From Candidatus Aenigmatarchaeota archaeon (GTDB taxonomy: Archaea > Aenigmatarchaeota > Aenigmatarchaeia > CG10238-14 > SCSR01), in NCBI GenBank assembly GCA_039000685.1, contig JAWBNW010000003.1, positions 1-33,413 of the forward strand: a stretch of DNA of 33,413 bases. The letters are read 5' to 3'. Below the pieces are notes generated by a model. It had not been told where the DNA came from and did not search any database. It saw only the letters and a list, made by a program, of their open reading frames with translations. The position numbers were made by a program, and so were the translations under genes. Below are positions 1,212 through 17,123 of this stretch, one piece after another; position 1 is the stretch's first letter; every line of letters begins with the position of its first letter.

Positions 1212-2471
1212 CTATTCTAACAACCACTTCCACAAAGGCTTACAAACTATCTTTTTATTCCCAAGCTTAATCTCATCTTCATAATCCCATGTTATCACAA
1301 GCAAATTTTTGCACTTCAGCTCATCACTTGCTTTTATTAAGGCTTTAATTTCCCTTTTCTCAATTTCATCTTTAGCTGAAGCATAAGTCGCTTGAATTAA
1401 CTGTTTAACTTTCAAACCTTCTTTCAAAACGAAATCCACTTCATTTTTTTGTTGATCTTTCCAGTAAAAGATTTCCACAAGCTTTCCCAGTTCTTTTTTC
1501 TTCAATTCGATGAAAACAAGGTTTTCAAGCTTTCTACCGATGTTATCTTCTACAAGTCCAACATCATTAACATAAACTTTTGGTATTGTAAGTAAAGATT
1601 TTTTTAAAGAAAAGCTGAACTTTCTCAAGCAAAAAGAGAAGAAAACTTCTTCAAGATATGAAAAGTATTGGTAAAGAGTTTTAATGCTCGCTTCTATCCT
1701 TCCTTTGAGTTGGTTAAAAATTCTGTTTAAAGAAAACTCTTTAGCAAAAGATTGTAAAACTGAATACAAAAGAAATCTTGCAACTTCGACATTTTCTATT
1801 CTATACCTTTCAACCAAATCTTTATAGAGCACAACATCAATATATTCTCTTGAAAAAGTTTTGTTGTCTATTTTTTTCAAGACAACTTGCGGGAAACCTC
1901 CTGTTGTCAAATATTTTTTGAGTAAGTTTTTAATTTTTCCCTCTTCTATACTTGAATACAATTTTTTTTGTTCAATTCCTTCTGTTTTCAAAAATTCTTT
2001 AAAACCGAAAGGAAAGACAACAACATCCAAGCTTCTTCCCCTCAATTGGGTTGCTATTTCTTTTGACAAAAGTTTCGAAGAAGATCCTGTGAGGAAAACA
2101 AAATATTTTTTCTTCTCTATTAAGCTGTAAACGAAAGATTGCCACCTCTCAAGGTTTTGAATTTCATCCAAGAAAATGTATTCAGGCTCTTTTCCATAAA
2201 CTTCTACATGCTTTTGTACACATTTGACCAAATCTTCTCTCTTCAGAGATTTAATTTCATCATCTTCAAAGTTTATGAAAAGATAATCTTCATCATCTAG
2301 ATTAAACTTCTTTATCAGACTGTAGAGAAAGAATGTTTTGCCAGATCTTCTCGGTCCTATCACAGAAAAACCAAATTCTTTTGTTGGATTTACAGAAATT
2401 AACCTTTCCACTATTTCTTGCTTTTTTATGCTTTCTTTTTTGTCTACAAAATACTTTTCCATATATTCCAT
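1212..2471 (-). CDS. AAA+ ATPase, AAA_14 + wHTH + DUF4143 family
   Basis: Walker A GPRRSGKT, Walker B IFLDEIQ, LTGSSSKLLSKEIATQLRGR, GGFP, EVDFV and C-terminal PLWKWLL. The start is more likely ATG 2471 or 2462 than 2531, given the TATA-like box at 2487-2494. Confidence 0.9.
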   Translation of the reverse strand: MEYMEKYFVDKKESIKKQEIVERLISVNPTKEFGFSVIGPRRSGKTFFLYSLIKKFNLDDEDYLFINFEDDEIKSLKREDLVKCVQKHVEVYGKEPEYIFLDEIQNLERWQSFVYSLIEKKKYFVFLTGSSSKLLSKEIATQLRGRSLDVVVFPFGFKEFLKTEGIEQKKLYSSIEEGKIKNLLKKYLTTGGFPQVVLKKIDNKTFSREYIDVVLYKDLVERYRIENVEVARFLLYSVLQSFAKEFSLNRIFNQLKGRIEASIKTLYQYFSYLEEVFFSFCLRKFSFSLKKSLLTIPKVYVNDVGLVEDNIGRKLENLVFIELKKKELGKLVEIFYWKDQQKNEVDFVLKEGLKVKQLIQATYASAKDEIEKREIKALIKASDELKCKNLLVITWDYEDEIKLGNKKIVCKPLWKWLLE

Positions 2472-2519
2472 TAGGGATAAACTTTTATTTAAATTTTTAG
2501 TCATTAGGGATAAACTTTT
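2469..2519 (-). promoter_or_regulatory. 18-bp direct repeat flanking a TATA-like box (putative operator)
   Basis: CATTAGGGATAAACTTTT at 2469-2486 and 2502-2519, with ATTTAAAT at 2487-2494 between them. Confidence 0.6.
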
Positions 2520-2579
2520 TAACCTTTTCATGTAGCGCTTATGTAACCAATAAAAGAAGGATCTTAATGAATAAAATGT

Positions 2580-3848
2580 TCAAAAAGGATTCAAAAGTAG
2601 CCACTTCCACAAAGGCTCACAAACTATTTTTCTTCCCCCAAATTTTATCTCATCTTCATAGTCCCAAGTTATCATCAACAAATTTTTACACTTAAGCTCT
2701 TCACTTGCTTTTATCAAAGCCTTTATTTCCCTCTTTTCAACTTCATCTCTACCAGAAGCATAAGTAACTTGAATTAATTGCTTTATTTTCAATCCTTCCT
2801 TCAACACAAAATCAACTTCCCCACTCACAACATCGAAATAATAAATTTCACAGTTTCCAAACCTTCTTTTAAGTTCTAGAAAAACAACATTTTCCATCAA
2901 CCTCCCCCAATCTGTAGAAAACCTTGGGGAAAAGAATTTTATCAAACCATTATCGATAACATAAACTTTCTTCTGTGTTTTTATGGTTTCTTTTAATTTC
3001 CTTTCAAACTTTTCAACAGAAAAAATCAAGAAAACGTCTTCCAGCATTTTCACAAACTCTATCACAGTATTTTTTGAAATTTTAATTCCTGAAGATGTTA
3101 ATAAGTTTTGCAGTTTTGAATAAGTATAGTAAGAAGAAAAATTTGAAACCAAAACCTTTGTCAAGAATTCGAGTGTCTTAATTTTTTTCACTTTGAACCT
3201 TTCAACTATGTCCTTGTAAAAAACACCATCTTTTATCGAAATTAGTAAATCTTGATAAAGTTGTGGCTTGAGAACAGGTTCTGGAAAACCACCATTTTCA
3301 ATATATTCGTTCAGCATTTTAAGCAAAATTCCTCTTTCAGCATAAATTGAGAACTTATTTTCTTCAAATTTCTTAGCTCTAAGAAACTCCTTGAAAGAGA
3401 AAGGAAAAACAAAAACACTTACAGCCCTTCCCCTCAATTGAGTAGCAATTTCTTTGCTCAAAAGTTTTGAAGAAGATCCTGTGAGAAAAATTCTGTAGCC
3501 TTTATCATAAAGCTCCCTCACACCAATTGGCCAATCTTTCACAACTTGTATTTCATCCAAAAACAAATTTTTTGGTTTTTCTCCATAAAGTTCTTGATAT
3601 GCAACAATCATATCATTGAAATTTTTGGCAGAAACACCAATTAAACTTCCTCTTTCAAAATTTATGAAAAGACAATCTTTCTTACCGATTTCTTTAATTT
3701 TTTGATAAATCAAGTATGTTTTGCCACTTCTCCTAGGCCCAACTATTGTTATAAGATTGTGTTCCGGAATTTCTATTTCTCTTTTCACTAATTCTGGAAG
3801 TTCGGATTTTTCGAATTCTGCTATAGCCGCTTTGAATTCCTCTTTCAT
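2580..3848 (-). CDS. AAA+ ATPase, AAA_14 + wHTH + DUF4143 family (paralog 2)
   Basis: GPRRSGKT, LFLDEIQ, LTGSSSKLLSKEIATQLRGR, GGFPE, EVDFV, PLWKWLL. ATG 3848 lies about 24 nt downstream of a TATA box. Confidence 0.9.
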   Translation of the reverse strand: MKEEFKAAIAEFEKSELPELVKREIEIPEHNLITIVGPRRSGKTYLIYQKIKEIGKKDCLFINFERGSLIGVSAKNFNDMIVAYQELYGEKPKNLFLDEIQVVKDWPIGVRELYDKGYRIFLTGSSSKLLSKEIATQLRGRAVSVFVFPFSFKEFLRAKKFEENKFSIYAERGILLKMLNEYIENGGFPEPVLKPQLYQDLLISIKDGVFYKDIVERFKVKKIKTLEFLTKVLVSNFSSYYTYSKLQNLLTSSGIKISKNTVIEFVKMLEDVFLIFSVEKFERKLKETIKTQKKVYVIDNGLIKFFSPRFSTDWGRLMENVVFLELKRRFGNCEIYYFDVVSGEVDFVLKEGLKIKQLIQVTYASGRDEVEKREIKALIKASEELKCKNLLMITWDYEDEIKFGGRKIVCEPLWKWLLLNPF

Positions 3849-3862
3849 AATGTATAGTATAG

Positions 3863-3888
3863 TGAACAAATATTTAAATTTTTGTTCA
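3863..3888 (-). promoter_or_regulatory. Inverted repeat flanking TATA box (putative operator)
   Basis: TGAACAAA-TATTTAAATT-TTTGTTCA. Confidence 0.55.
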
Positions 3889-3913
3889 GTACTCTTTTAT
3901 GAAAGTTGATTAA

Positions 3914-3978
3914 ATTCTAACAGCCACTTCCACAAAGGCTTACAAACTTTTCCATATATTCCATTAGGGATAAACTTT
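3914..3978 (-). pseudogene. Collapsed copy of the 1212-2471 ATPase gene (5' end fused to 3' end)
   Basis: 3914-3948 matches 1214-1248 with one mismatch. 3946-3978 matches 2453-2485 exactly. The two parts share ACT at the junction. Confidence 0.85.
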
Positions 3979-4000
3979 AAAAAAACAAAATCCATGCTTT

Positions 4001-4062
4001 TAAGCAACTTCCACAGCTTACACAATTTTCTTATTCTTTAACTTTGCTTCAATCAAAGCTTT
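4001..4062 (-). pseudogene. Degenerate remnant of a DUF4143 ATPase C-terminus
   Basis: Translates as KALIEAKLKNKKIV / KLWKLL with a frameshift, compared with KALIKAS...KLGNKKIVCKPLWKWLL in the intact genes. Confidence 0.55.
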
Positions 4063-4112
4063 AGGCTCAAGCCTTGCAAGCCAAACTAATCTCCACTATA
4101 TATAAAATATTT

Positions 4113-4532
4113 CTATTCTCTGTTTTTATTGTAACTACTTCTACCTGTTGAAAAAAGAAAGTTCAAAAGCTTCTTCACCACAAAACCTGTGATTAAAGCA
4201 CCGGCAACTGCTGCAGAAAGCTTGTAGGGCTCGGGTGCAAGATTGAAAGCATCTATTCCTGCCTTCAAACCAAAAAACACGGGAGCAACATAACCCAAAG
4301 CTTTAACCAATCTAGAAGGTTTGTAGTAAGGCTTAAGCTCGCCTTCCTCGTAAGAAATTCCGAGCTCACCAAGTTGGCGAACATTTGCACCAACGGCTGC
4401 GCTTTTCTTCCTATTTTTGAGATTGTATTTCCCTCTTCCAAAAAGTTCTATTTCTTCATTAACTGGATATCTTGCATTTCCAACTATGCTGCCACCTTCT
4501 ACTCCAACACTTGCCTCAAGATTCTCTCACAT
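4113..4532 (-). pseudogene. Small membrane protein gene with a nonsense codon at codon 2
   Basis: ATG(4532)-TGA-GAG-AAT..., then an open frame to TAG 4113 (ENLEASVGVEGGSIVGNARYP...LVKALGYVAPVFFGLKAG...). TTTAAA lies about 26 nt upstream of the ATG. There are two C-terminal hydrophobic helices. Confidence 0.65.
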
Positions 4533-4689
4533 AATTTTAAGGCGGGAAGTTAAAGATTTAAACCTTAGACTCAATTCACAGTTAATTTCTTTGCTGTTTT
4601 CCTAAGCCCAGAGATTAATTGACTATAAAAGTATTTAAAGATTAGTTAATTTCAAAACTTAATAGAAATAAAAAAACTAAATCAATTTC

Positions 4690-5169
4690 ATGAAACCAGA
4701 AAAAGATGCTTACGGCCAAGAAATATGGGCTTACTTTAAAGGAAAGGAAAGTTTCGAGATCGTAGAAAGAGATGACGGATATTTTGATGTATCCAGCGGC
4801 GCTAAATCGTATTTCTCTGAGTATAAAAATTGGCCAGCACATGAAAAGAAAGTCATGAAGTTTGTAAAAGGTAAAGTTTTGGATGTCGGGTGTGGTGCTG
4901 GCAGGCATACTATTTATCTCCAGAAGAAAGGTTTTGATGTTGTTGGAATTGACAACTCACCACTTGCTATAAAAATTTGTAGATTGAGAGGTTTGAAAAA
5001 AGCCAAAATTATGTCGATAACTGAAGTTGGTAAATTCAAACCAAATTTTTTTGACACGAGAATTATGATGGGGAATAATTTTGGGTTATTTGGTAGCTTT
5101 AAAAGGGCAAAGTTTCTCTTGAAAATCAAAGGAAACGGTATGAAAGTGTTAATTCTTCTAGTAAGATAG
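4690..5169 (+). pseudogene. Class I SAM-dependent methyltransferase, C-terminally truncated
   Basis: Motif [20 protein letters not shown] and [10 protein letters not shown]. The family-like sequence seems to stop near KRAKFLLK (~5125), so the Rossmann fold appears incomplete. Confidence 0.7.
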
Positions 5170-5369
5170 AATTTAATTTCACTATCTTTAAACAGGCTTT
5201 CGAATACTTGGAAATAAAATCAAACAGAGAACTTTCTTCTTTAATAGCTGCTTGATTCATTCCTGCTTCGGCCATTCAACTCACTTTTTCTTTCTTTTTC
5301 AGAATACCAACTCACTAACAGACTCACATACTTCGGCATTCTTTCCAAGACATCTCTATCCATAATGAA

Positions 5370-5539
5370 TCACTCTGTTGGTTTCCTAGTTTCTTCAGGT
5401 AAGTAAGACAATTTGGCAAGAACTTTCACTAACAATGCCCTAACTGTATCTGACCTTGCAGGATCTCTTCTGTTTTAGCTTTCTCTAGAGCCTGAAATAC
5501 TTCTTCTGGCAAGCATATTGATATCGTTTTAACTTTCAT
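5370..5539 (-). pseudogene. Ribbon-helix-helix (CopG-like) regulator, frameshifted
   Basis: MKVKTISICLPEEVFQALEKAK, then in a shifted frame RRDPARSDTVRALLVKVLAKLSYLPEETRKPTE*. This matches the RHH beta-strand/helix A/helix B pattern. Confidence 0.6.
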
Positions 5540-5606
5540 GAGTTCTACTGGTAAAATGTTAGTTTTAAATAATACTGTCAGGTATAACAACAATTGTTGA
5601 TAGTTT

Positions 5607-6020
5607 ATGCAACATCAAGAGATAGTAGAAGCAATACAAGTAGCTAGTAGGAATTGGAAATTATTGGAAAGACTCAACCAGAGTCGATATAATGTCACTA
5701 GAATAGCCAAAGAATTGAAGAAAGACAAATCAGTTGTTTCTAGAGATAAGGAACTGCGAAGACAGAGGCTTAGTTCAATCTATTTTTGGATCTGGAAAGG
5801 ATGGTGAAAGGTTAAATTTACAGAGCTAACAACAAAGGGTAAAAAAGTGATTGAAGCTATAAACCAAGTTAGCGATATAAGGGAAATCAAAAATTTGAAC
5901 TTACTGAGTTATATACTAACAGTAGAAGTTAAATCATCGAAAGATACAAAGCTATCTGAGAGTGAATTTAGAGAAAATATCCAGGAGAAATTAAAGAATA
6001 GACCAAAGAGAATTACTTAA
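5607..6020 (+). pseudogene. Winged-helix (MarR/ArsR-like) regulator with two frameshifts
   Basis: NVTRIAKELKKDKSVVSR, EDRGLVQSIFGSGKDGER and FTELTTKGKKVIEAINQ lie in successive frames, ending at TAA 6020. Confidence 0.65.
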
Positions 6021-6215
6021 TTTGATAGATTATTTTTCAGTTAGTTTAATAGTTTGTTTGGACGCATAACCATCAGATTATTACATAAATTGTTTATTTT
6101 ACCATTAATGTGCACAAAATAACAAAACATTTGGCAGATTATCTAAATAACAAGTTTATATGTTATATTTAAATCTTTTATCATATTAATTTCATTATAA
6201 TTTCATTAGGAGTAA

Positions 6216-7649
6216 GTGATCCTAATGAAATATGCAAAAAAAGAGATTTCGAATTGGTATGATGAAGTACTAGAGCGTGCTGATATTTTAGATAATAGAT
6301 ATCCTCTCAAAGGATGTTATGTGTGGAGGCCTTATGGTTGGCAGATTATGAAGAATATAATGAAGATATGGGACAATGCTCTAGTAAATTCTGGACACCA
6401 AGAAGCACGATTCCCCTTACTTATTCCAGAATCACTTTTTGGCAAAGAATCAAAACATCTACGCGGCTTTGAAGAGCAAGTTTATTGGGTTACTCGTGCA
6501 GGAAGAAGGGAACTAGATGAAAAATTAATCATTAGACCTACTTCGGAAACAGCAATATATCCCATGTATTCGTTGTGGATAAGATCTCATAAGGATTTAC
6601 CTCTGAGAATTTATCAAAACAGCAATGTAATGCGTTATGAATCCAAATCAACACGACCATTAATTAGAGACAGAGAAATATTCCCCTGGTTCGAAGCTCA
6701 TACTGCACATGCCACACTAGAAGATGCAGAAGAACAAATAAAGACAGAAATTAAAGTTTTAAAAGAAATTTTTAATAAATTGTCTCTGCCGTATTTAATT
6801 TTAAATAAGCCAAAATGGGAGTTATTTCCTGGAGCCATTTCGGCCATAGAGTTTTATTCTATTCTTCCAAACGGAGTTTTATTAGAAAATGGCAGTGTTA
6901 ATAATTTAGGTCAGGCATTTTCAAAGGTTTACGATATAAAATTCAGGAAACAAAATGATTCTTATGAATATGTGTGGCAAACTTGCACAGGTAATGGTGA
7001 AAGATTACTTGCAGCTGTTATACTAATCCATGGTGATGATTATGGTCTTGTTTTACCACCATCTATTGCACCAATCCATTCTGTAATTGTCCCTATACCC
7101 AAAAAAGGAAAACTCTTAAAAATAAAAGAGTTCTCTGAAGAGATTAACGAAAAATTAAATAGAATGCAAATAACTTCTTATTTAGATGTACGCAAAGAAA
7201 TAACACCTGGAGAAAAATTTTATGATTGGGATTTAAAAGGGGTTCCAACTAGAGTTGAAATTGGTGAGAAAGAAATTGAAAATGATGGACTAACAGTTTA
7301 TAGGAGGGATATACGTAAAAGAGTATTTATTCATTCTAATGAGATTAACAAATTTTTCTCCTCAGTTTTTGATGACATATCTAATTCTATGATGGCTAAG
7401 GCTATCAATAACACTGAATCACTTATAAAAATACTTTATAATTATGATGAATTAAGAAGAATGCTATCTGAAGGATATGTCGCAAAAATAAGTTTTTGCG
7501 GATCCAAAGAATGTAGTGATAAAATAAAGGATGATTTTGCAGCTGATGTTGTTGGTTTACTTTATGAAAACATTAGCATGGAAAAAGAAAATTGTATTGT
7601 GTGTGGCAAATCTTCTATAGGTCAAGCTATAGTTGGTAAAACATTCTGA
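6216..7649 (+). CDS. Divergent archaeal/eukaryal-type prolyl-tRNA synthetase paralog
   Basis: RPTSET, motif 2 RYESKSTRPLIRDRE, motif 3 QTCTGNGER, HGDD, anticodon domain LKGVPTRVEIG and Zn-ligand Cys pairs. Pocket motifs are non-canonical. AGGAG precedes GTG 6216; ATG 6225 is an alternative start. Confidence 0.9.
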   Translation: MILMKYAKKEISNWYDEVLERADILDNRYPLKGCYVWRPYGWQIMKNIMKIWDNALVNSGHQEARFPLLIPESLFGKESKHLRGFEEQVYWVTRAGRRELDEKLIIRPTSETAIYPMYSLWIRSHKDLPLRIYQNSNVMRYESKSTRPLIRDREIFPWFEAHTAHATLEDAEEQIKTEIKVLKEIFNKLSLPYLILNKPKWELFPGAISAIEFYSILPNGVLLENGSVNNLGQAFSKVYDIKFRKQNDSYEYVWQTCTGNGERLLAAVILIHGDDYGLVLPPSIAPIHSVIVPIPKKGKLLKIKEFSEEINEKLNRMQITSYLDVRKEITPGEKFYDWDLKGVPTRVEIGEKEIENDGLTVYRRDIRKRVFIHSNEINKFFSSVFDDISNSMMAKAINNTESLIKILYNYDELRRMLSEGYVAKISFCGSKECSDKIKDDFAADVVGLLYENISMEKENCIVCGKSSIGQAIVGKTF

Positions 7650-8665
7650 CTAATTTTTTGATATTTTTTCCGTTCAATTTTATGCGACCATATACATCTA
7701 CGCTTTGAATTTTTCATTATGTTAAAAAATTCTCTCATATTGTTCTTTATTTGTTTTAAACTACCTTTTCTAAGTAACACAAGTATGTTAATAGGGTTGT
7801 TGTCTGGAATCGGAAAAAAGCATTTTTTAAGTTTTCCGTCATGTGTTATTCTTAAAGCAAAAATACCATCTTGGCATGGGTAATTTGAACATTTTTTACA
7901 AAATTCAGCATAATAAATTCCATTTTTCGGATCTAAAAATAAAACTTTTGTACCATCTTGAAGAACGTATTTATCCATAGGAATGCCAATACCACCCAAA
8001 TGTTTTTCTAGCGTTATATTTTTTGCATATTTTTTAAATAACTTCTTAATTTTACTAAGTGGTATATATTCCTTCTGCCAAAATTCGAAGTTTGATAAAT
8101 TGTTTAACTCCATTATCTTAGCTGTAGCTCCAAGTTTTCCTATAAACCTAATCAGCCTTGGAAATTCTGATTTATTTGTGTTCATTGCTACGACATTTAT
8201 AATCATAGGCAATTTATATTTTTTACATGCATAAAGTCCTCTAATAACTTTTTCTAATCCATCAACACCTAACATATTTATAAATACTTTTTTATTTAGG
8301 GTATTTAGACTTACTGTAATAGAATCTAACCCAGCTTCTTTAAGGTCTTTTGCATATTTTTCAAGTAATATACCATTTGTTCCAAGATTAAGATTTTTAA
8401 TCCCATTAATTTTTCGGACCGATTTTACTATTTCTATTATATCGTCTCTTAAAAGAGGTTCTCCACCCGAAATTTTTATATGCTTAAAACCAACCCCCAC
8501 TCCAATTTTAACCAATTTTTTAATTTCATTAGGGGTCATGAAATTAGAGATATTATTAAAAAAATCTTCGCCACCAAGTGTGCAATAACTACATCTTGCA
8601 TTACAATATGGAGTTACTAAGACTCGTAGATGTGGAATTAAATTATGAGTTTTTCTAAGATACAT
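7622..8665 (-). CDS. MoaA-like radical SAM enzyme with twitch-type auxiliary cluster domain, function unknown
   Basis: CNARCSYC (CxxxCxxC), SGGEPLLR, TNG and C-terminal FCKKCSNYPC...LRITHDGKLKKC. GGAGG RBS upstream. No terminal GG. Confidence 0.85.
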   Translation of the reverse strand: MYLRKTHNLIPHLRVLVTPYCNARCSYCTLGGEDFFNNISNFMTPNEIKKLVKIGVGVGFKHIKISGGEPLLRDDIIEIVKSVRKINGIKNLNLGTNGILLEKYAKDLKEAGLDSITVSLNTLNKKVFINMLGVDGLEKVIRGLYACKKYKLPMIINVVAMNTNKSEFPRLIRFIGKLGATAKIMELNNLSNFEFWQKEYIPLSKIKKLFKKYAKNITLEKHLGGIGIPMDKYVLQDGTKVLFLDPKNGIYYAEFCKKCSNYPCQDGIFALRITHDGKLKKCFFPIPDNNPINILVLLRKGSLKQIKNNMREFFNIMKNSKRRCIWSHKIERKKYQKISQNVLPTIA

Positions 8666-8726
8666 TCACTAGAACCTCCTTTTTTACTTTATAAATTATA
8701 AAAGATTTAAATCTGTTAAATTATAA

Positions 8727-9746
8727 ATGCTAATTATGATTAAAAAAAGATTAGCATCATATTTTGCAATAATAATTATTTTTGCAATAATTTTATTATT
8801 TATTACTTATTTTTTAGGTCCTAAATTACTATATTTGCCATCAGGAAAAATAAGAGTTGGTTATATAAAACATGCTGCTGAACTTCCTCTTTATGTTGCA
8901 TTGGAAAATGGTTATTTTGAAAAACAGAATTTAAAAGTTGAACTAATTCCTCTTGGATATAAAGAAGAAATGGACGCTTTAATAAGAGGGGATATTGATA
9001 TTATTCCTGCAACAAGTTTAACATTACCATTTGGTGTAGAAAGTGAAAGTCCAGAGTTGCTTAAACTCCACACATTTGGTGGGGTAATAGATGATGATAA
9101 AGAAATAGTAGAAGCTATTGTAGTTTTAAACGAATCTTCAATTTATTCTTTAAATGATTTAAAGAATAAAAAAATAGGTGTGACAAGTGGTGGAGTTGAC
9201 TTATTTGTTGTGAAGACTGTTCTTACTAAAGTTGGTTTAAAACCAGAAGAAAATAACATACAAATACTTCAAATGGATAGGAAACTGTTATTAATGTCAT
9301 TAGCTTCTAGACAGGTGGATGCAATTTATGTGACCCAACCAGATTTAGCTTCTATAGTTCATACAGTAAACAGCAGATATGTTGTCATCAATCCCAGGGC
9401 AAAATATATTTTAAACCCATTTTGGTCAGGTGCGGGAGTAGTAACAAGTAAATATTTAATTAAAAACTCTGAAACTTTTAAAAAATATCTAGTAGCAATA
9501 GATGAAGCAATAGAGTATTCTAGACTAAATCCCATTGAATCTAAAAAACTCTTAGTAAAATATACACCTGTAAACGAGAGCATAGCATTAGATGTTGGTA
9601 TTTATTTCAAAGTAAAATCAAATGAATCCATTAATCTTACTGCAGTCCAACAAATTGCAGATACTTATGTGGAGGTTGGGATATTGAAAAAAAATATCAA
9701 TGTTACAAACCTTTATTTATCTCCAGAATATGTAAAAGCACTTTGA
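8727..9746 (+). CDS. NitT/TauT (SsuA/THI5-like) ABC transporter substrate-binding protein
   Basis: N-terminal TM anchor, IRVGY, LPLYVALENGYFEKQNLKVEL, DLKNKKIGV. Confidence 0.85.
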   Translation: MLIMIKKRLASYFAIIIIFAIILLFITYFLGPKLLYLPSGKIRVGYIKHAAELPLYVALENGYFEKQNLKVELIPLGYKEEMDALIRGDIDIIPATSLTLPFGVESESPELLKLHTFGGVIDDDKEIVEAIVVLNESSIYSLNDLKNKKIGVTSGGVDLFVVKTVLTKVGLKPEENNIQILQMDRKLLLMSLASRQVDAIYVTQPDLASIVHTVNSRYVVINPRAKYILNPFWSGAGVVTSKYLIKNSETFKKYLVAIDEAIEYSRLNPIESKKLLVKYTPVNESIALDVGIYFKVKSNESINLTAVQQIADTYVEVGILKKNINVTNLYLSPEYVKAL

Positions 9747-9752
9747 GTAATT

Positions 9753-10511
9753 ATGATATATATAGATATTGTTCATTTATATAAAAGCTATGAGACTAAT
9801 GATGAGAAGATAATTATATATAAAAATTTTAACTTTAAAATTAGAGAAAAAATTATTGCATTTTTTGGACCTAATGGATGTGGTAAAACAACATTACTTA
9901 ATATTATCTGTGGTATAGTAAAACCCGATTCGGGCAAAATAAAGTTCAATATTGATGGTTTTTCTCAAGATAAAATAGGGTACGTGTTTCAAAGTACTGA
10001 GAATTTTTTATTTCCATGGATGTCAAACTTTGACAATATTACATTTCCTCTTAAGCTTAAAAATATTGATAAAAATGAAAGGGCAAACAAACTTCAAACA
10101 TTAATTAATCAACTAGATATAGTAAATATACCTTTAAATGCGTATCCCTATCAACTTAGTGGTGGGCAACAACAAATAATTGCTATTTTAAGAGCATTGA
10201 TAAGCGACCCAAATATTTTATTATTAGATGAGCCATTTTCCAATTTAGACTACTTAACTAAACTTAAAGTTAAATTTAACTTACTTAAAATACTAAAGAA
10301 TAGAAATATAGTTACTATTTTTGTTTCTCATACAATAGAAGAAGCAATATTCTTGGCTGATAGAATCGTCATTTTAAGTCAGAAACCGACGAAAATTCTA
10401 GAAACTCTGAAAGTTCCTTTTAAAAAGAGAAATATAGATACGATCCATTCAGAAAAATCCTCAAAGTTAAAAGAAAGAGTACTAAGACATTATAAAAATT
10501 ATTGGGTGTGA
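9753..10511 (+). CDS. NitT/TauT ABC transporter ATP-binding protein
   Basis: GPNGCGKTT, LSGGQQQ, LLLDEPFSNLD, VSHTIEEAIFLADRI. Confidence 0.92.
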   Translation: MIYIDIVHLYKSYETNDEKIIIYKNFNFKIREKIIAFFGPNGCGKTTLLNIICGIVKPDSGKIKFNIDGFSQDKIGYVFQSTENFLFPWMSNFDNITFPLKLKNIDKNERANKLQTLINQLDIVNIPLNAYPYQLSGGQQQIIAILRALISDPNILLLDEPFSNLDYLTKLKVKFNLLKILKNRNIVTIFVSHTIEEAIFLADRIVILSQKPTKILETLKVPFKKRNIDTIHSEKSSKLKERVLRHYKNYWV

Positions 10512-10517
10512 TATAAA

Positions 10518-11261
10518 ATGAAAAAGTTTACTTTTGTTGGACCACTTATAGTATTACTAATTTGGTGGATTATAACTTATATTCCTTTGATTAAATCAAT
10601 TTTACTTCCACCTCCACATACTGTAATTTTATCATTGTTTACACAACTATTCATTTCAAAGGAGTTATTGTATCCTTTATTTGAGACTCTATCTCTTTGG
10701 CTAACAGCATTCATTGTTGGTACTGTTGGTGGTATTTCTAGCGGGATGGTTATGGGATACTCTGATAAAATTTATTCATTTTTTGAAGTAATCATAGATT
10801 TTTTTAGATCTCTCCCCTCACTCTTGTTGATTCCAATAGCCATAATATTTTTCGGTATAGGGAATACATCAGCATTTCTTGTTACAACATGGTCTGGATT
10901 TTTTTATATTTTTATCAATACAATTTATGGAGTGAAATATGCTAGGAAAAGCTACATCTTTATTACAAAAATATTAAACATTGAGAAATTAAAAACATTC
11001 ACAGAAGTTATTTTGCCAGCTTCTGCTCCATACATAATTGCTGGTTTGCGTATAAGCTTAAGCATAACTTTAATAGTAGCAGTTGGATCAGAAATGATTC
11101 TCGGAAGAGGTGGTCTTGGCGGGAAAGTTTATGATGCATTTTTGATATATAACACAACTGAAATCTATGTGATAATCCTTATTGTTGGAACATTAGGCTA
11201 CATATCTAATAAACTTTTGGTACTTCTAGAAAATAGAGTTATTCACTGGAAAGGAGAATAA
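10518..11261 (+). CDS. NitT/TauT ABC transporter permease
   Basis: LLPPPHTV, FFRSLPSLLLIP, VILPASAPYIIAGLRI and about 6 TM segments (TauC/SsuC pattern). Confidence 0.9.
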   Translation: MKKFTFVGPLIVLLIWWIITYIPLIKSILLPPPHTVILSLFTQLFISKELLYPLFETLSLWLTAFIVGTVGGISSGMVMGYSDKIYSFFEVIIDFFRSLPSLLLIPIAIIFFGIGNTSAFLVTTWSGFFYIFINTIYGVKYARKSYIFITKILNIEKLKTFTEVILPASAPYIIAGLRISLSITLIVAVGSEMILGRGGLGGKVYDAFLIYNTTEIYVIILIVGTLGYISNKLLVLLENRVIHWKGE

Positions 11262-11309
11262 TAAATATTAAATTAATTTTTATAGTAATGTTAAAAATCG
11301 TACAGAAAA

Positions 11310-12767
11310 TTAGTATTGTTTTGCCATATATACTAAAAAATTTGCCTTTTTACCACATACTACACATTCTCCTTTTGGAGATTTTTCTTTTTCAAATAAC
11401 GTCCCTCTAATTGTTCCACCATTTGTTTTTACCTTTATATGATTTGCACATTCTTCATTACCACACCAATTAGTTTTTACTAACCCACCTTTTTCTTCAA
11501 GAATTTTCTTTAACTCTTTAAAATCTTTTGCTTCTGATAAATTCTCTTTAAGAAAGTTTTCAGCTTTTTTAACTAGAGAATTTTGCAAATTTTCAAGTAA
11601 TTTTTTAACAGAAGATATGAGTTGTTTTTCCTTACAAGATTTTTTTGTTCTGGTATCTCTTCTCACTAGAACCACTTGCTTACTTTTCAAATCAGCTGGT
11701 CCTATTTCAATTCTTAGTGGTACCCCTTTTAATTCCCAGTAATTATACTTGTATCCAGGAGTATATTCAGACCTTTCGTCTACTATGACTCTAATTTCAT
11801 TTTTTTCCAAAAGTTTTGAAATTTCTCTTGCCCTTTTCAAAACTCTGTTTTTTTCACTCTTTTTGTAGTATATTGGAATTATTACAACTTGATATGGTGC
11901 GATTTTTGGAGGAAGGATTAGTCCTTTATCATCTCCGTGGATAGCTATTAAAGCACCAAAAATTCTCCAAATAGCGGGTCCGTAGCAAGTTTGCCAAACA
12001 TACTTTTCTTTCTTATCTTTATCTATAAATTTTATGTTAAAAACTTTAGAAAAATTTTGTCCAAGTAAATGGGTCGAAGGCAATTGAATAACTTTTCCAT
12101 CTGGCATTATAGTATCTGCTGCATAAGTATGAATAGCACCTTTAAATTTATCATGTTCAGGTCTTTTAAAAAACATAAAAGGAATTGCAAACTGTTTATG
12201 CATTACTTCTTCAGTAATTTTCATATCCTCTTTTACTTGTTTTTCTGCCTCCTTCTTTGTAGCGAATACATTATGAGCTTCAATCCAATAAAATTCCCTA
12301 CCTCTAATAAATGGTCTGGTATAACTTTCATATCTCCAAACCTGACAACTTTGATATGTTTTAAGTGGTAAATCTCTCCAACTCCTGATCCATAAAGAAA
12401 ACATACTATACATCGCAGTTTCTGAAGTTGGTCTTAAAGCTAATCTTTCTTCTAGTTTTTTGTGTTCAGCACCACATTCTGTAATCCAAAAGACATCTAC
12501 CGAGAATTCAGCGTGTTCTCTCTCTTTTTTTAGAAAAGATTCTGGAATTACAGAAGGGAATAAAACTGGCTCGTGGCCTCTTTTCTCAAGTTCTTTTTCA
12601 AATAGCTCATACATTATCTTCATTACCCTAACAGACCAAGGCATATGAACAAGAAACCCCTTGACATTGTATCTTATATCTGCCAATTCAGCTTTTTGAA
12701 CTACCTGCGTATACCATTCTGAAAAATTTTCTAATTTTTTAATTGTTAATCCTTCTTGTTCAGCCAT
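11310..12767 (-). CDS. proS: Proline--tRNA ligase, canonical archaeal type
   Basis: RPTSET, WRYESYTRPFIRGREFYWIEAH, DKFKGA, QLPSTHLLGQNF, QTCYG, WELKGVPLRIEIG, Zn cysteines and C-terminal Tyr. Confidence 0.95.
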   Translation of the reverse strand: MAEQEGLTIKKLENFSEWYTQVVQKAELADIRYNVKGFLVHMPWSVRVMKIMYELFEKELEKRGHEPVLFPSVIPESFLKKEREHAEFSVDVFWITECGAEHKKLEERLALRPTSETAMYSMFSLWIRSWRDLPLKTYQSCQVWRYESYTRPFIRGREFYWIEAHNVFATKKEAEKQVKEDMKITEEVMHKQFAIPFMFFKRPEHDKFKGAIHTYAADTIMPDGKVIQLPSTHLLGQNFSKVFNIKFIDKDKKEKYVWQTCYGPAIWRIFGALIAIHGDDKGLILPPKIAPYQVVIIPIYYKKSEKNRVLKRAREISKLLEKNEIRVIVDERSEYTPGYKYNYWELKGVPLRIEIGPADLKSKQVVLVRRDTRTKKSCKEKQLISSVKKLLENLQNSLVKKAENFLKENLSEAKDFKELKKILEEKGGLVKTNWCGNEECANHIKVKTNGGTIRGTLFEKEKSPKGECVVCGKKANFLVYMAKQY

Positions 12768-12914
12768 TCAATAACACCATAAAATCTTTTATAAAATCTA
12801 TATAAATAAAGCTAGCCAAAATAAGTAATTTGGATTAGATGCATGGAACTCGTTCACAATTTCATTCATATTAATATTATGTTTATTTAAATAAATTAAT
12901 TTTTTACTATTTTT

Positions 12915-13250
12915 TCATTTTATAATTCTTAAATTCAATAACTTGATGATTTTTAAAAGTACATCTTTATTCAATACTCTTTCGTTCCATTTGAGAAAAA
13001 CAAGTTTCACTTCTTTATTCAAAGTTTCTCCTTTAAAATTCCACCATTTCTTGTGTAGCTCTTTAGCATAATCCAAATAGGCAACTCTTTGAATGCTCGT
13101 AATGCCATACTTATCTAGAATTCTCTTAACTCTCTTTATCAACCTATCTTGAGACTTAAGAGAATTCTTATCCATGTACTTCTTCAATTGTTCGTAAGTT
13201 ACGTTAATTTTCTGCATACCAAACAACTCCCTGAGCGAATTACATTTCAA
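12915..13250 (-). CDS. Putative SIRV2-fold (Adnaviria-type) capsid-protein-like helical protein
   Basis: VKRILDKYGITSIQRVAYLDYAKEL...GETLNKEV...NKDVL resembles the rudivirus coat protein core as recalled from memory. Start uncertain (TTG 13250 or ATG 13217). Confidence 0.5.
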   Translation of the reverse strand: MKCNSLRELFGMQKINVTYEQLKKYMDKNSLKSQDRLIKRVKRILDKYGITSIQRVAYLDYAKELHKKWWNFKGETLNKEVKLVFLKWNERVLNKDVLLKIIKLLNLRIIK

Positions 13251-13274
13251 CTTTAGTTAAACTATACTTCATGC

Positions 13275-13907
13275 CTAATCTTCCTTAAACAGATCCTCCA
13301 TGTTCTTCTCTTTAGCTAGTTCAACAAACTCTTTCTTTACTTTTGGATCTTTCTCTGCCAGTCTTTTCAACAGTTCGAATACAAAATCCTCATACTTCCT
13401 TCTATTATCTTCAAGTTTCATCATAGTTTCTATATCCAAAGGAGAGCCACACTTCTTACAAAACTGAGAAGTTGGGTCATTAATGTTTTGACATCTAAGA
13501 CATTTCTTTAGCTTCAAAACAGTTTCTTTCTTATCTTCTTCTTTAGCCAAACCATGTATCTGTAGTAAAGCATTATCAACATTCCTACCTGACAGATGAA
13601 CATAAACAGAAGCCATCTTAGAAGATTGTACCCAACCAAACAGTTCTTTCATCTGTGCTTCTGTAAGTTTGCTAGCCAATACGGTAGCTCCAGCATGTCC
13701 AAAACTATGTGGGTCAATTCTTTTCTTTATCCCAACTTTAATAGCGAGGTCCTTAAGCATTTTTAGAGTAGAATGATAACCAAGTTTGTTAAATCTATTT
13801 CTGGTTCCTATGGATATCCATAAAGAAGAATCAGAGTTATCTTTCAAAGGATGATTGCTCAGCCAATTCATTAGTATGGGAGGAGAAGCAATTACTCTTA
13901 CTCTTCT
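13275..13907 (-). pseudogene. Tyrosine recombinase/integrase C-terminal fragment with zinc ribbon
   Basis: RRVRVIAS...WLSNHP, PHSFGH (HxxR Arg replaced by Gly), GWVQSSKMASVYVHL with the catalytic Tyr, and CLRC/CKKC. The N-terminal half is absent. Confidence 0.85.
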
Positions 13908-14278
13908 ATAGATAAATCGAGCTCATTTTCTTCAACTTTGACCAAGTAGTCAACTCCAAATCTCACACGCTTTTCCCCATCGCCCACAACCAAAAATTTC
14001 GCATCCTTGTAAATTTCAACACTCACAGGCTCTCTATTCTGCAAAGGAATTAAAGCTTTATGATAATTCCTTCCTTCTTTCCATATTTCTTCTGATGTCA
14101 AGATTTCAGCTATTTTTTCACACAGCTCCCAGTCTGTATGACAGTATCTTTTCATCAGCCACTGCAAAAATTCTTCTTGTGAGATTTCATTTTTCTGAAG
14201 TTTGTGGAATTGGTCAAGCAAGCAATAAACTTCCCTACAGCTCTTTAATTCCCTTTTCAAATACTCCAACATTTTCAT
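13898..14278 (-). CDS. Hypothetical protein
   Basis: Open frame with host-like codons. ATG 14278 lies about 25 nt downstream of TAAATATATATTTA, which favours it over TTG 14356. Confidence 0.65.
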   Translation of the reverse strand: MKMLEYLKRELKSCREVYCLLDQFHKLQKNEISQEEFLQWLMKRYCHTDWELCEKIAEILTSEEIWKEGRNYHKALIPLQNREPVSVEIYKDAKFLVVGDGEKRVRFGVDYLVKVEENELDLSIEE

Positions 14279-14376
14279 CAATTGTTTTGAAGAAAAAAGC
14301 CTAAATATATATTTAGAACTCAAGGAGTGGTGAATTTCGATTTTATTCAAGATCAATCAACCACTCCCACAAAGGC

Positions 14377-15174
14377 TTACGAAAGAACAAAACTATTTTT
14401 TATACCTAATTTCACTTCTTTTGCTCTTTCCCACAAGCTTCTCATGTAGCTGTCTAACATGTTAACAAAAGAAGGATCTTTCGACCAAATTGAATGGAAG
14501 TTCAACTTCTCACCATTTTCCAATCTAACCATAGCCTCTTTTCCATCAACAACAACTATGCGAGGATGCAAGCCAAGTTCAACAATTCTCAGTTTAATCC
14601 CACCCTTCAAGTACCACTTTACTTTTTCCATGTTTTCAAAACCATTTGTTACCATGAGACGAACTTTTATTCCCCTTTCTTTACAATCAAGCAAAGCTTC
14701 CCTGTAGCTTGAAGAATAAGGCAAATTCTTCGTGAAATCGTAAACATATCTCCTAGCTTTTTTGAACATCTGCACAAGCTTGTCAAGAATTTCCATATAT
14801 TTTTCAGTCTTCTGAACCCAAACTCCTTCGGCAAATTCTTCATCCACTTCTATCGGTCTTAACAACCTGCTGATCAAAAAAGCTTTCTGCTTCAATTCTT
14901 TGAACTCTTCCTCCTTAGCTTCAAGCAAACTCTTGATGACAAATTGTGGCGTTACTGCTTTAAAAAGCTTAGGCCTTTCTTCAGAAATTTCCACAAGCTG
15001 CTTCTCCATTAAGCTTTCAAGCGTCACATAAATTTTTGATTGGGGCACGCAAGCTTGCTTACTTATTTCGCTAGCTTTAGTCGGACCAAGCAGGCTTAGC
15101 GTCACGTAAGCTTTCGATTCATATTCAGTCAAACCAAACTTTTGCAAAGTCTTGATTATTTCTTCCTTCTCCAC
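14377..15174 (-). CDS. TrmB family transcriptional regulator
   Basis: GLTEYESKAYVTL, ASEISKQACVPQSKIYVTLESL and a C-terminal PLD-like domain with HPRIVVVDG. Confidence 0.9.
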   Translation of the reverse strand: MEKEEIIKTLQKFGLTEYESKAYVTLSLLGPTKASEISKQACVPQSKIYVTLESLMEKQLVEISEERPKLFKAVTPQFVIKSLLEAKEEEFKELKQKAFLISRLLRPIEVDEEFAEGVWVQKTEKYMEILDKLVQMFKKARRYVYDFTKNLPYSSSYREALLDCKERGIKVRLMVTNGFENMEKVKWYLKGGIKLRIVELGLHPRIVVVDGKEAMVRLENGEKLNFHSIWSKDPSFVNMLDSYMRSLWERAKEVKLGIKNSFVLS

Positions 15175-15496: not shown

Positions 15497-16312
15497 ATGG
15501 AGAAAGCTGATATATACAATACTTTGAAGCAACTTGGCTTGGGTGAATATGAAGCAAGGGCTTACACAGATCTTGTTCTGCTAGGGCCTTCTCCTGCAAA
15601 CGAACTCAGCAGAGTTGCCAATATACCAAAGTCAAAAATTTATGATGTTCTTGAGAGCTTGATGTCCAAACAAATGGTTGAAGTTTTTGAAGAAAAACCC
15701 AAGCTTTTCAGAGCAATCGATCCAAGCATCGCGATCAAAAGCTTGATAGATGAAAAAGATCAAGAATTCAAAACAATAAAAGAAAAAGCAAATGCCTTAA
15801 TTTCTCAGCTTAAAATTTTTGGAAAAAAAGAAGAAATAGCAGAAGGAATTTGGGAACAAAATGGAGAAAAGGCAACAGAAGCCTTGAACAAGCTTGCTGA
15901 GATGTTTGAAAGAGCAAACAAATACACGATCAGCATCACGCGCGATTTTTCCCTTTCTTCAATTTTAAGAGAAGCTATAAAGTCTTGTTTGAGAAGAAAA
16001 GTCAAAGTCATGATGATATGCATGGGGATAACAAAAGAAAATTTTTACGGAGCAAAGTGGTGCTTAGAACAAAAAATTCCCATCAAAATTTTTGAAGCAA
16101 AAATTCATCCTCGCATCCTTGTGGTTGATGGGAAAGAAGTTGCGATAAGGCTTGACAGCAACCCAGAAGCAAGAAGGTTCAGGTTCAGGACGATTTGGTC
16201 AAATGATCCTTCTTTTGTTGCTGTCATGGACAACTACATGAAAAATCTCTGGAAGATGGCAAAGCCAGTTGATCTAAAAAATTTTAACTCTCCCAGTAGG
16301 TTACAAATTTAA
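15497..16312 (+). CDS. TrmB family transcriptional regulator (paralog)
   Basis: GLGEYEARAY, IPKSKIYDVLESL, HPRILVVDG. Collinear with 14377-15174. Confidence 0.9.
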   Translation: MEKADIYNTLKQLGLGEYEARAYTDLVLLGPSPANELSRVANIPKSKIYDVLESLMSKQMVEVFEEKPKLFRAIDPSIAIKSLIDEKDQEFKTIKEKANALISQLKIFGKKEEIAEGIWEQNGEKATEALNKLAEMFERANKYTISITRDFSLSSILREAIKSCLRRKVKVMMICMGITKENFYGAKWCLEQKIPIKIFEAKIHPRILVVDGKEVAIRLDSNPEARRFRFRTIWSNDPSFVAVMDNYMKNLWKMAKPVDLKNFNSPSRLQI

Positions 16313-16976: not shown

Positions 16977-16994
16977 GATGTTTAGATTTGTCAA

Positions 16995-17080
16995 TGCCCC
17001 CACTGGGATTCGAACCCAGACCCAGAGCTTTTCACTAAGAACCGCAAGCTCCCGTCCTATCCAGGTTAGACGATGGGGGC
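16995..17080 (-). tRNA. tRNA-Arg(GCG) with 12-nt intron at 37/38
   Basis: Acceptor GCCCCCA/TGGGGGC, D-loop GGA with A20, anticodon arm GGAGC-TTGCGG[TTCTTAGTGAAA]A-GCTCT, T arm CTGGG-TTCGAAT-CCCAG. Intron at 17030-17041. CCA is not encoded. Confidence 0.92.
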
Positions 17081-17123
17081 AATCTATAAAAATATTTCTC
17101 ACCAATTAATTTAATCTGATAAC

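Follow-up and report, generated by a model that had tools for sequence, protein, structure and literature searches.

Why should an archaeon with one of the smallest kinds of cellular genome hold three genes for proline-tRNA ligase (ProRS), two of them on one island, and what, if anything, ties these two to the MoaA-like radical S-adenosylmethionine (SAM) enzyme as well as the ATP-binding cassette (ABC) importer encoded between them? The question is raised by a stretch of 33,413 nucleotides from a Candidatus Aenigmatarchaeota archaeon (contig JAWBNW010000003.1, here C23; herein the whole stretch is referred to as the window), which belongs to a genome of 677 kb that is estimated to be 83.5% complete (G000). 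A first reading of the DNA letters (herein the original prediction) had proposed that six genes of the window make up one new system, in which an imported small molecule is modified by radical chemistry and then activated by a ProRS. What we find are auxiliary synthetase copies on a mobile island, a finding that is unusual for its host and for the number of copies. The island and its cargo, six open reading frames (ORFs) at 6216–12767 that are all uninterrupted, as had been claimed, comprise the following features:

about 4567..13906, no strand: horizontally acquired island of ~9.3 kb (empty syntenic site in relatives, low GC content overall and at third codon positions, bridged junctions)
6216..7649, plus strand: ProRS_A, archaeal/eukaryote-type proline-tRNA ligase, 477 aa (TIGR00408, 486.4 bits; cut-off 437)
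7622..8665, minus strand: MoaA-like radical SAM enzyme, 347 aa (Radical_SAM, 1.5e-29; best NCBIfam match MoaA, below cut-off)
8666..8726, no strand: intergenic region of 61 bp separating the divergent radical SAM gene and importer operon (from the ORF coordinates)
8727..9746, plus strand: substrate-binding protein, NMT1/SsuA-like, with N-terminal membrane anchor (NMT1, 4.3e-19)
9753..10511, plus strand: ABC transporter ATPase (ABC_tran, 3.4e-32)
10518..11261, plus strand: ABC transporter permease (BPD_transp_1, 1.8e-22)
11310..12767, minus strand: ProRS_B, full-length ProRS, 485 aa (TIGR00408, proS_fam_I, 523.2 bits; cut-off 437)

The island and its limits

The limits of the island emerge from a comparison of the first 20 kb of the window with eight other genomes of the same genus. 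At the syntenic site of G002:C8 and G004:C39 the island is absent: the match to the window runs up to position 4566, is followed by about 33 bases, and resumes at 13907. Base composition sets the same region apart, with a GC content of 0.27–0.32 in 1-kb windows across the island versus 0.35–0.43 to its right. The GC content at third codon positions (GC3) of the six cargo genes is 0.16–0.23, compared with a genome mean of 0.316 (standard deviation 0.062; 305 ORFs of at least 240 aa), and among those 305 ORFs the six genes take ranks 1, 4, 8, 9, 15 and 19 from the bottom. The island is foreign DNA, and it has the features of an integrative island, namely presence in one genome and absence at the syntenic site of others, foreign composition, and an integrase fragment at one end. 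The AT-rich setting with a broken regulator and a broken integrase described in the original prediction is thereby borne out (the regulator is spread over three frames and only the C-terminal half of the integrase is left), and as its integrase has already been destroyed, the island was not inserted just recently.

An error of binning or assembly, by which the island or the entire contig would come from another organism, could be suspected from a metagenome assembly in 57 contigs and from the deviating composition of the island; however, in same-genus genomes the two flanks find their matches on the same contigs, at 86–96% identity, and contigs from the Logan assembly of sequencing run X1 bridge both junctions. 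These contigs cover 4122–5500, 6714–11319 and 11338–14125 with zero differing letters and at an even depth (7.3–7.9 across the island, like the flanks). As X1 is the sole listed run with the island and may be the source sample, it checks the assembly within the same data set. The arrangement of the island is no assembly artefact, and an origin of the contig in another organism has next to no probability. No X1 contig joins 4566 to 13907, as an island-free variant in the sample would. A joint between 3710 and 10901 that appears in X1 contigs has just 21 letters on its shorter side and was treated as a repeat artefact. No RNA data set is listed as containing the island, and the single metatranscriptome from that study had no match to it, results that carry no information on expression.

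Three ProRS genes in one genome

Both island copies are surplus, because a third, native ProRS is encoded on contig C1 of the same genome (642.3 bits with TIGR00408). G000 therefore has three ProRS genes above the TIGR00408 cut-off (642, 523 and 486 bits), and 39 of 40 relatives drawn from its genus, family and order have a single ProRS match each, the remaining relative having none. A search of 371 genomes of the phylum with ProRS_B found a match in 343 of them, with three matches in G000 alone and two in five genomes, where they may represent split genes.

The claim that the island holds two full-length and very different ProRS stands: ProRS_A and ProRS_B each carry the complete set of Pfam domains (tRNA-synt_2b, HGTP_anticodon and ProRS-C_1) and are 39% identical to one another over 464 residues. 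The native C1 enzyme, which is near-identical to the ProRS of same-genus genomes, shares 52% identity with ProRS_B and 40% with ProRS_A. In a FastTree phylogeny (midpoint root, read without support values) the native copy groups with its genus, ProRS_B falls among metagenome fragments next to a clade containing the host lineage, and ProRS_A lies far off among other archaeal groups. The phylogeny that the original prediction had called for places A and B apart from the native copy and from each other; that ProRS_B turns out to be the ordinary type of sister genera speaks against the earlier proposal. No relatives of either island copy were confirmed in viral contigs, and a tblastn search of 72,556 plasmid records with the radical SAM enzyme and ProRS_A returned just ordinary moaA and proS genes at no more than 37% identity.

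Nothing in the sequences of ProRS_A and ProRS_B suggests an altered substrate or lost tRNA binding. In a three-way alignment of the two island copies and the native enzyme, none of the C-terminal-domain cysteines varies. At 94 columns with at least 90% conservation (the features tested include RPTSET and W.E.H), ProRS_A deviates at 8, ProRS_B at 15 and the native copy at 17, counted against 116 archaeal ProRS from ProRS_A's own hit list, a reference that is biased towards ProRS_A; the columns at which ProRS_B deviates belong to the housekeeping type of the sister genera. The C-terminal tyrosine of ProRS has a role in the active site; 91% of the reference sequences have Tyr at this position, as do ProRS_B and the native copy, and ProRS_A ends in Phe. 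Each of the two island enzymes most likely charges tRNA-Pro with proline.

The two copies appear to differ in origin. Among the best 120 of 5,871 hits, ProRS_A is 41–50% identical to its matches, the named ones being ordinary archaeal ProRS, and among solved structures the ProRS from M. thermautotrophicus (1NJ1; E-value 7e-125, with an end-to-end alignment) and from M. jannaschii (1NJ8) come closest. These matches are best explained if ProRS_A is a canonical, deep-branching ProRS of the archaeal type, nearest to the methanogen enzymes. ProRS_B is 70–75% identical to the sole ProRS of six genomes from other genera of the same family (G138, G018, G024, G016, G014 and G023), and its similarity to the sister-genus genes at the DNA level spans 11307–12768, stopping at the ends of the coding sequence. 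Most of the 11 ProRS_B-type loci have a flanking gene in common with the native proS locus, which indicates that the ProRS_B-type gene is the housekeeping gene in its normal place there; in these 11 genomes, flanks of ~1.5 kb around the ProRS_B-type genes contain no other island gene. Going by these alignments, ProRS_B is xenologous to the ProRS that serves the sister genera as housekeeping enzyme.

The type of the resident ProRS is patchy within genera of the family. The enzyme of G018 is 73% identical to ProRS_B, compared with 52–54% for its congeners G103, G106 and G107; that of G138 is 75% identical, compared with 52–54% for four listed congeners (G139, G140, G141 and G143); and genus g6 has a similar split of ProRS types. 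ProRS replacement hence seems to be recurrent in the family, in what looks like the repeated in-place replacement of an essential synthetase. Two ProRS types (~52% identical) alternate as the sole ProRS among congeners, including G119, G123 and G127 on one side and G120–G122 on the other.

The radical SAM enzyme, its usual partners and the importer

The relatives of the radical SAM enzyme fall into two groups, the first comprising about thirty clusters (323–347 aa, 35–48% identity, E-values of 1e-55 to 1e-99) and the second the canonical MoaA proteins (about 295–310 aa, E-values from 1e-46 onward). The ESM Atlas returned only unnamed radical SAM clusters and MoaA, and radical SAM matches at an E-value of 1e-20 or better occur in eight of the 371 phylum genomes, G000 included, all with at most 36% identity. 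In a quick IQ-TREE search, read with SH-aLRT support only, the window protein pairs with P0002 (support 100), and together they branch as sister to most of the clade (87–91). Canonical MoaA is among the 28 sequences in which three cysteines of the radical SAM motif (C21, C25 and C28; CX3CX2C) and three of the auxiliary cluster (C256, C259 and C282) never vary. The clade carries an insert of nine residues between auxiliary cysteines two and three, with an invariant Y262-P263-C264-x-D266, giving the clade motif C..C.NYPCQD. 

Passages of PMC9026282 describe R17, R266 and R268 of Staphylococcus aureus MoaA as strictly conserved and essential at the GTP site, and the fourth (open iron) site of the auxiliary cluster as binding guanine N1. 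The equivalents of R17 and R268 are retained in the window enzyme (R14 and R272), and the position of R266 holds Asn in the HMMER alignment or Ala/Ser in the MAFFT alignment and is never Arg in the clade. C264 would be the fourth ligand of the auxiliary cluster, which would alter substrate binding; by analogy with MoaA, a nucleotide is our first guess for the substrate.

Could the gene simply encode a true MoaA that serves molybdenum cofactor synthesis beside housekeeping genes, as part of ordinary metabolism? The best family and structure matches are indeed to MoaA (nearest solved structure S. aureus MoaA, 1tv7, E-value 5.4e-47; a match to PDB 8wm2, 'Fe-S radical SAM', is confined to the N-terminal core, E-value 1e-21); however, the protein scores below all three MoaA equivalog cut-offs (NF001199, 193.7 versus 231; TIGR02668, 188.7 versus 325.25; TIGR02666, 182.7 versus 284.05), and Mob_synth_C reaches 22.7 versus a cut-off of 37.4. 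MoaC, MoaE and MoeA_N (PF01967, PF02391 and PF03453) had no match in G000, at its estimated completeness of 83.5%, and were each matched in 11 of 14 control genomes. Given the scores below cut-off, the lost Arg266, the inserted fourth cysteine and the cofactor genes that were not found, we do not class the enzyme as MoaA, and a role in ordinary cofactor synthesis is extremely improbable; the original prediction of a MoaA-like enzyme outside this pathway is supported on each of these counts.

The clade to which the enzyme belongs has a gene neighbourhood of its own. We clustered the ORFs that neighbour clade members at 18 loci, from four species-representative genomes and 14 metagenomes. Among the matches listed, the following proteins recur beside the clade member:

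14 of 18 loci: B12-binding radical SAM enzyme
8 of 18 loci: RmlD-like reductase
8 of 18 loci: class II synthetase-like protein, 313–486 aa
8 of 18 loci: PHP phosphoesterase
7 of 18 loci: Ogg-like HhH-GPD protein
7 of 18 loci: Peptidase_S66 proteins, with two copies in two loci

The conserved cluster spans L110:7673–18577 and is also present in L009, L107, L111, L115, L116, L118 and L119. Its synthetase-like protein matches LysRS best, at 165–282 bits versus cut-offs of 428–468, and lacks the N-terminal domain in half of the cases; in G371 and G373 this LysRS paralog is additional to a true LysRS (473 and 535 bits). A HemK-family methyltransferase also belongs to the cluster, and L116 encodes it as a fusion with the radical SAM enzyme; single loci add an APH-like kinase and a TrmB/PLD regulator (L110) or a YbaK-type tRNA_edit protein (L010). 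The S66 proteins have a sole NCBIfam match, to a muramoyltetrapeptide carboxypeptidase model (140 bits versus a cut-off of 378); MccF, the enzyme of microcin C immunity, is a member of the S66 peptidase family. We found neither a family model nor a paper that gives the cluster a name, in a search that covered main texts, with supplementary files outside it.

None of these partners accompanies the window enzyme. A tblastn search of G000 (83.5% complete) with all representatives of the partner genes gave weak matches only, to unrelated radical SAM and housekeeping synthetase genes. Conversely, no homologs of ProRS, the binding protein or the permease lie beside the radical SAM relatives in 80 genome loci and 87 further loci (L099–L185), so that the co-occurrence anticipated in the original prediction is absent from these loci, as it is from the ProRS_B-type and importer loci examined. 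The simplest account is that the radical SAM gene of the window is an orphan of a clade normally accompanied by seven or eight other genes. As a lead to new chemistry, the conserved cluster of the inserted-cysteine clade holds more promise.

The importer, judged by its profile matches, is a binding-protein-dependent transporter of the NitT/TauT family. The N-terminus of the binding protein is hydrophobic, and its scores stay below those of the specific families (SsuA_fam, 94.8 versus 163.5; SaoX, 33 versus 300; TauA, 25.5 versus 304); its best sequence match in the PDB is an unnamed binding protein (E-value 6e-6). It belongs to a small subfamily of 12 clusters at 50–60% identity, one of them named from a Methanofastidiosum metagenome-assembled genome, and matches in the phylum are restricted to 10 of the 371 genomes, at no more than 35% identity. 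Distant relatives have the same order of binding protein, ATPase and permease, and the short flanks examined there contain neither a ProRS nor a radical SAM gene. An assignment of the importer to the SAO family, whose names reportedly come from a preprint on selenoprotein-linked transport, was dropped on account of scores far below the cut-offs.

Gene layout, explanations and known systems

Across the six cargo genes there are four transcription units in alternating orientation. The genes for ProRS_A and the radical SAM enzyme converge, and their 3' ends overlap by 28 bases (7622–7649); the importer operon and the ProRS_B gene converge likewise, and the 61-bp spacer at 8666..8726 may hold a shared promoter for the divergent radical SAM gene and importer operon. 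The C-terminal tail of the radical SAM enzyme reaches past the aligned end of its closest homolog, P0002. Around this intact core lie the remaining features of the island and a tRNA gene in the host DNA beyond it:

4681..5169, plus strand: remnant of a SAM-dependent methyltransferase (Methyltransf_25/11 profiles matched N-terminally only; the frame ends early)
5604..6020, plus strand: winged-helix regulator pseudogene (three frames, 5604–5807, 5719–5829 and 5808–6020, read like one helix-turn-helix regulator)
6104..6127, plus strand: 24-nt motif upstream of ProRS_A, core of a 60-base stretch at 6087–6146
12915..13250, minus strand: ORF of 111 aa, without Pfam or PHROG match
13275..13871, minus strand: C-terminal half of a tyrosine recombinase, with a zinc ribbon fused to it (Phage_integrase, 81–169 of 172; phrog_216, 151–238 of 301)
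16994–17081, minus strand: tRNA-Ala(UGC), 88 nt, in host DNA 3 kb beyond the island (ARAGORN)

The first piece of the regulator has weak HTH_38/MarR_2 matches, and the 111-aa ORF has no homolog beside proS in the sister genera. The island is best explained as one that can no longer move. We found no convincing attachment-site direct repeat at the island junctions, and no repeat or partial copy of the 3' end of the tRNA-Ala gene within the window. Rfam (E-value mode) had no match over 4000–15000, ARAGORN found no tRNA gene in the island, the only one in the window being the tRNA-Ala(UGC), and runs that allowed introns gave noisy calls, none of them within the island. The stretch at 6087–6146, which lies 70–130 bases upstream of ProRS_A, matches intergenic DNA of same-genus genomes (G006:C2, G007:C65 and G007:C117) at 80–84% and occurs in two copies in L212 and one in G000; either a regulatory site of the host or a scar left by recombination is conceivable.

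Several further observations concern the surroundings. The tRNA-Ala(UGC) gene exceeds the standard tRNA length and is 77–87% identical across the genus. The intron-allowing runs called a 'tRNA-Pyl(CTA)' at G000:C1:71753–71858 and, on C10, a 'tRNA-Leu'; the supposed introns measure 33 and 535 nt, respectively, and both calls are probably false. The island is inserted just beside tandem AAA_14/DUF4143 ATPase paralogs (1212–2531 and 2580–3869, minus strand) followed by the remnant of a third copy (region 1212–4310); these paralogs have repeat blocks in common that are 83–100% identical, with copies on several other contigs and in relatives. To the right of the island lie divergent TrmB-family regulator paralogs (14377–15174, minus strand, and 15497–16312, plus strand; 47% identical) whose DNA is conserved in relatives, and the occurrence of a TrmB/PLD regulator in the L110 cluster as well is probably a coincidence. 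Other runs of very low-GC3 ORFs in G000 (C54:16500–27600, C12:17200–25000 and C3:7800–9600) may be further islands; some of them hold radical SAM-like genes, at C54:24295–25116 and C3:8734–9501 and a B12-radical SAM-like gene at C54:16502–17566.

We hypothesize, with a probability of roughly 0.55, that the locus is a decayed integrative island with a mosaic cargo of three independent modules, in which the two ProRS are spare isozymes. The first module would consist of two foreign, canonical ProRS that act as sequence-divergent spares beside the native C1 copy, ProRS_B having been acquired from a sister lineage and ProRS_A from a distant one. They would be kept since a redundant and divergent target helps, for instance against a ProRS-directed inhibitor or stress; this retention is suggested by a cargo that is intact among three broken neighbours and by the frequent switching of ProRS type. 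The second module would be the self-contained importer of the NitT/TauT family, and the third the radical SAM clade member parted from its usual partner genes. Our results show what the genes are, that they are foreign, where the island ends, that its cargo is intact and unique among relatives, and that its members do not occur together in the other loci examined; the enzymatic activity of the two ProRS, the selective benefit and the independence of the modules are what we infer. Natural ProRS-directed compounds are described in passages of PMC11229370 and PMC6429109 (febrifugine, cispentacin and the prolyl-AMP-like phosmidosine), and one of the island copies may, by duplicating the target, confer resistance to a proline or prolyl-adenylate mimic, the alternative offered in the original prediction. 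Given how frequent ProRS replacement appears to be in the family, the island may also be a replacement caught in progress.

Several points weigh against a mosaic of independent modules. Two surplus ProRS of different origin within 6.5 kb would be an unlikely coincidence under pure accretion, and their pairing, together with an intact cargo among decayed neighbours, hints at selection on the set. The very low GC3 common to the six genes may mean that they lived together in one donor genome, and the 28-base overlap between the ProRS_A and radical SAM genes suggests a long adjacency. Furthermore, a surplus class II synthetase, the LysRS paralog, is present in 8 of the 12 clade loci of at least 7 kb among the matches listed, and this clustering makes a functional tie between the radical SAM family and aminoacyl chemistry plausible.

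These points bear on the rival explanations. The cargo could be a set of neutral passengers on an island too recent to have decayed, the extra ProRS being useless and transient before their loss; the presence of the island in one genome only, a composition that has not drifted towards that of the host and the apparently common exchange of ProRS in the family all fit such a scenario. We nevertheless consider it unlikely, in that three other genes of the island are frameshifted or truncated and the integrase is destroyed, whereas 6.5 kb of cargo is without any such lesion. A more elaborate proposal is an aminoacyl-nucleotide antibiotic or immunity cassette, in which the MoaA-like enzyme modifies a purine nucleotide, one ProRS either attaches proline to this nucleotide or makes a prolyl-adenylate that is then diverted, yielding a prolyl-AMP mimic, the other is insensitive and confers self-immunity, and the importer brings in a precursor. 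The usual cluster of the clade, with its LysRS paralog extra to a true LysRS in G371 and G373, its S66 peptidases and, in one locus, an APH-like kinase, lends this proposal some appeal, as do the low GC3 common to the six genes and the overlapping 3' ends of two of them, the natural occurrence of prolyl-AMP mimics such as phosmidosine (noted in parts of PMC11229370 and PMC6429109), and the precedent of albomycin, for which sections of PMC12691670 and PMC9437257 describe a nucleotide-acting radical SAM enzyme and a resistant SerRS. It is doubtful all the same, as none of the partner genes of the clade is found in the island or elsewhere in G000 (83.5% complete), both ProRS are canonical and ProRS_B is the type that sister genera use for housekeeping, the transporter, being binding-protein-dependent, is an importer rather than an exporter, ProRS and the clade co-occur in none of the loci examined, an MccF-like function of the S66 peptidases is an analogy, and, besides the transporter and ProRS genes, the island offers just the radical SAM gene as a biosynthetic candidate.

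Less probable still, and to our minds very unlikely, is the related idea that the inserted-cysteine clade marks a so far undescribed family of pathways in uncultured archaea and candidate-phylum bacteria, where a radical SAM enzyme that modifies nucleotides and a dedicated surplus class II synthetase make an aminoacyl-nucleotide as a mimic of an aminoacyl-adenylate, usually with the LysRS paralog and with S66 proteins as immunity, and that the island is a minimal proline version of the same; one ProRS would then give the prolyl moiety, the other would be an insensitive spare, and the importer would fetch a nucleoside precursor. Genetic-code expansion, whereby the radical SAM enzyme would make a proline analogue and a dedicated ProRS would load it onto a special tRNA, has a formal likeness to PylS/PylB and to the ProRSx with tRNA-ProA treated in parts of PMC9437257, but we regard it as scarcely credible, for the island has no tRNA gene, Rfam has no match over 4000–15000, both ProRS retain the columns conserved in their family, and MoaA-like enzymes are no amino-acid mutases. 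Much the same evidence counts against the coupled scheme of the original prediction, in which an imported molecule is radical-modified and then ProRS-activated: both ProRS are canonical, no tRNA or Rfam match was found, the cargo is divided into four transcription units, and its members do not co-occur in the other loci examined.

If the reading as a decayed island with spare ProRS isozymes is true, the locus would be a clear archaeal example of an essential translation enzyme as mobile cargo. The resident ProRS type differs between congeners, hence synthetase replacement may be ongoing and island-borne in this family, which would bear on the trust placed in synthetase trees for such lineages and on synthetase-directed inhibitors acting in these communities. 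The analysis also sets a radical SAM clade apart from MoaA by a difference at a tested residue and points out its conserved and apparently unnamed gene cluster.

The original prediction knew of no described system with this composition, and we likewise found none in the literature and in family libraries; the portions of PMC13149037 that treat tRNA deacylases in biosynthesis hold no ProRS or MoaA-like case. Individual parts of the island nonetheless resemble known systems. With MoaA the radical SAM enzyme has in common the CX3CX2C motif, three auxiliary cysteines and the equivalents of Arg17 and Arg268, but it is without the Arg266 equivalent, has the NYPCQD insert, belongs to a separate clade, and comes from a genome in which no molybdenum cofactor pathway was found. 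The importer is built like TauABC, SsuABC, ThiY-type transporters and SaoXPA (ATPase, BPD_transp_1 permease and a binding protein resembling NMT1/SsuA), although it scores far below every specific equivalog cut-off. The pairs PylS/PylB and EpmA/EpmB likewise combine a radical SAM gene with a neighbouring gene for an enzyme of the class II synthetase type; however, PylB and EpmB belong to other radical SAM families and act as amino-acid mutases, the Pyl system requires its own tRNA, which the island does not have, and EpmA is without an anticodon domain whereas both island ProRS are complete.

The albomycin locus likewise unites a radical SAM enzyme with an auxiliary cluster (AbmM) and an extra class II synthetase, as passages of PMC12691670 and PMC9437257 relate, but albomycin requires many further biosynthetic genes, none of which is in the island. 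A surplus ProRS copy is also known from Streptomyces, where ProRSx, in the account excerpted from PMC9437257, is a bacterial-type duplicate that has co-evolved with a dedicated tRNA (tRNA-ProA); no such tRNA was found here. The closest parallels are the auxiliary synthetases, such as IleRS2 with mupirocin, SerRS2 with albomycin, the AgnB2 LeuRS with agrocin 84, and BtProRS2, which, like the island copies, are extra, divergent, full-length and horizontally acquired synthetases beside a native one (from sections of PMC9437257). Among them, the ProRS2 of Bacillus thuringiensis is an archaeal/eukaryote-type second copy that is more tolerant to halofuginone and to stresses, according to parts of PMC11229370. 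The island differs from these auxiliary synthetases in that one of its copies is the housekeeping type of sister genera, and in that its surplus copies number two, differ in origin and are carried by an archaeon whose genome is very small.

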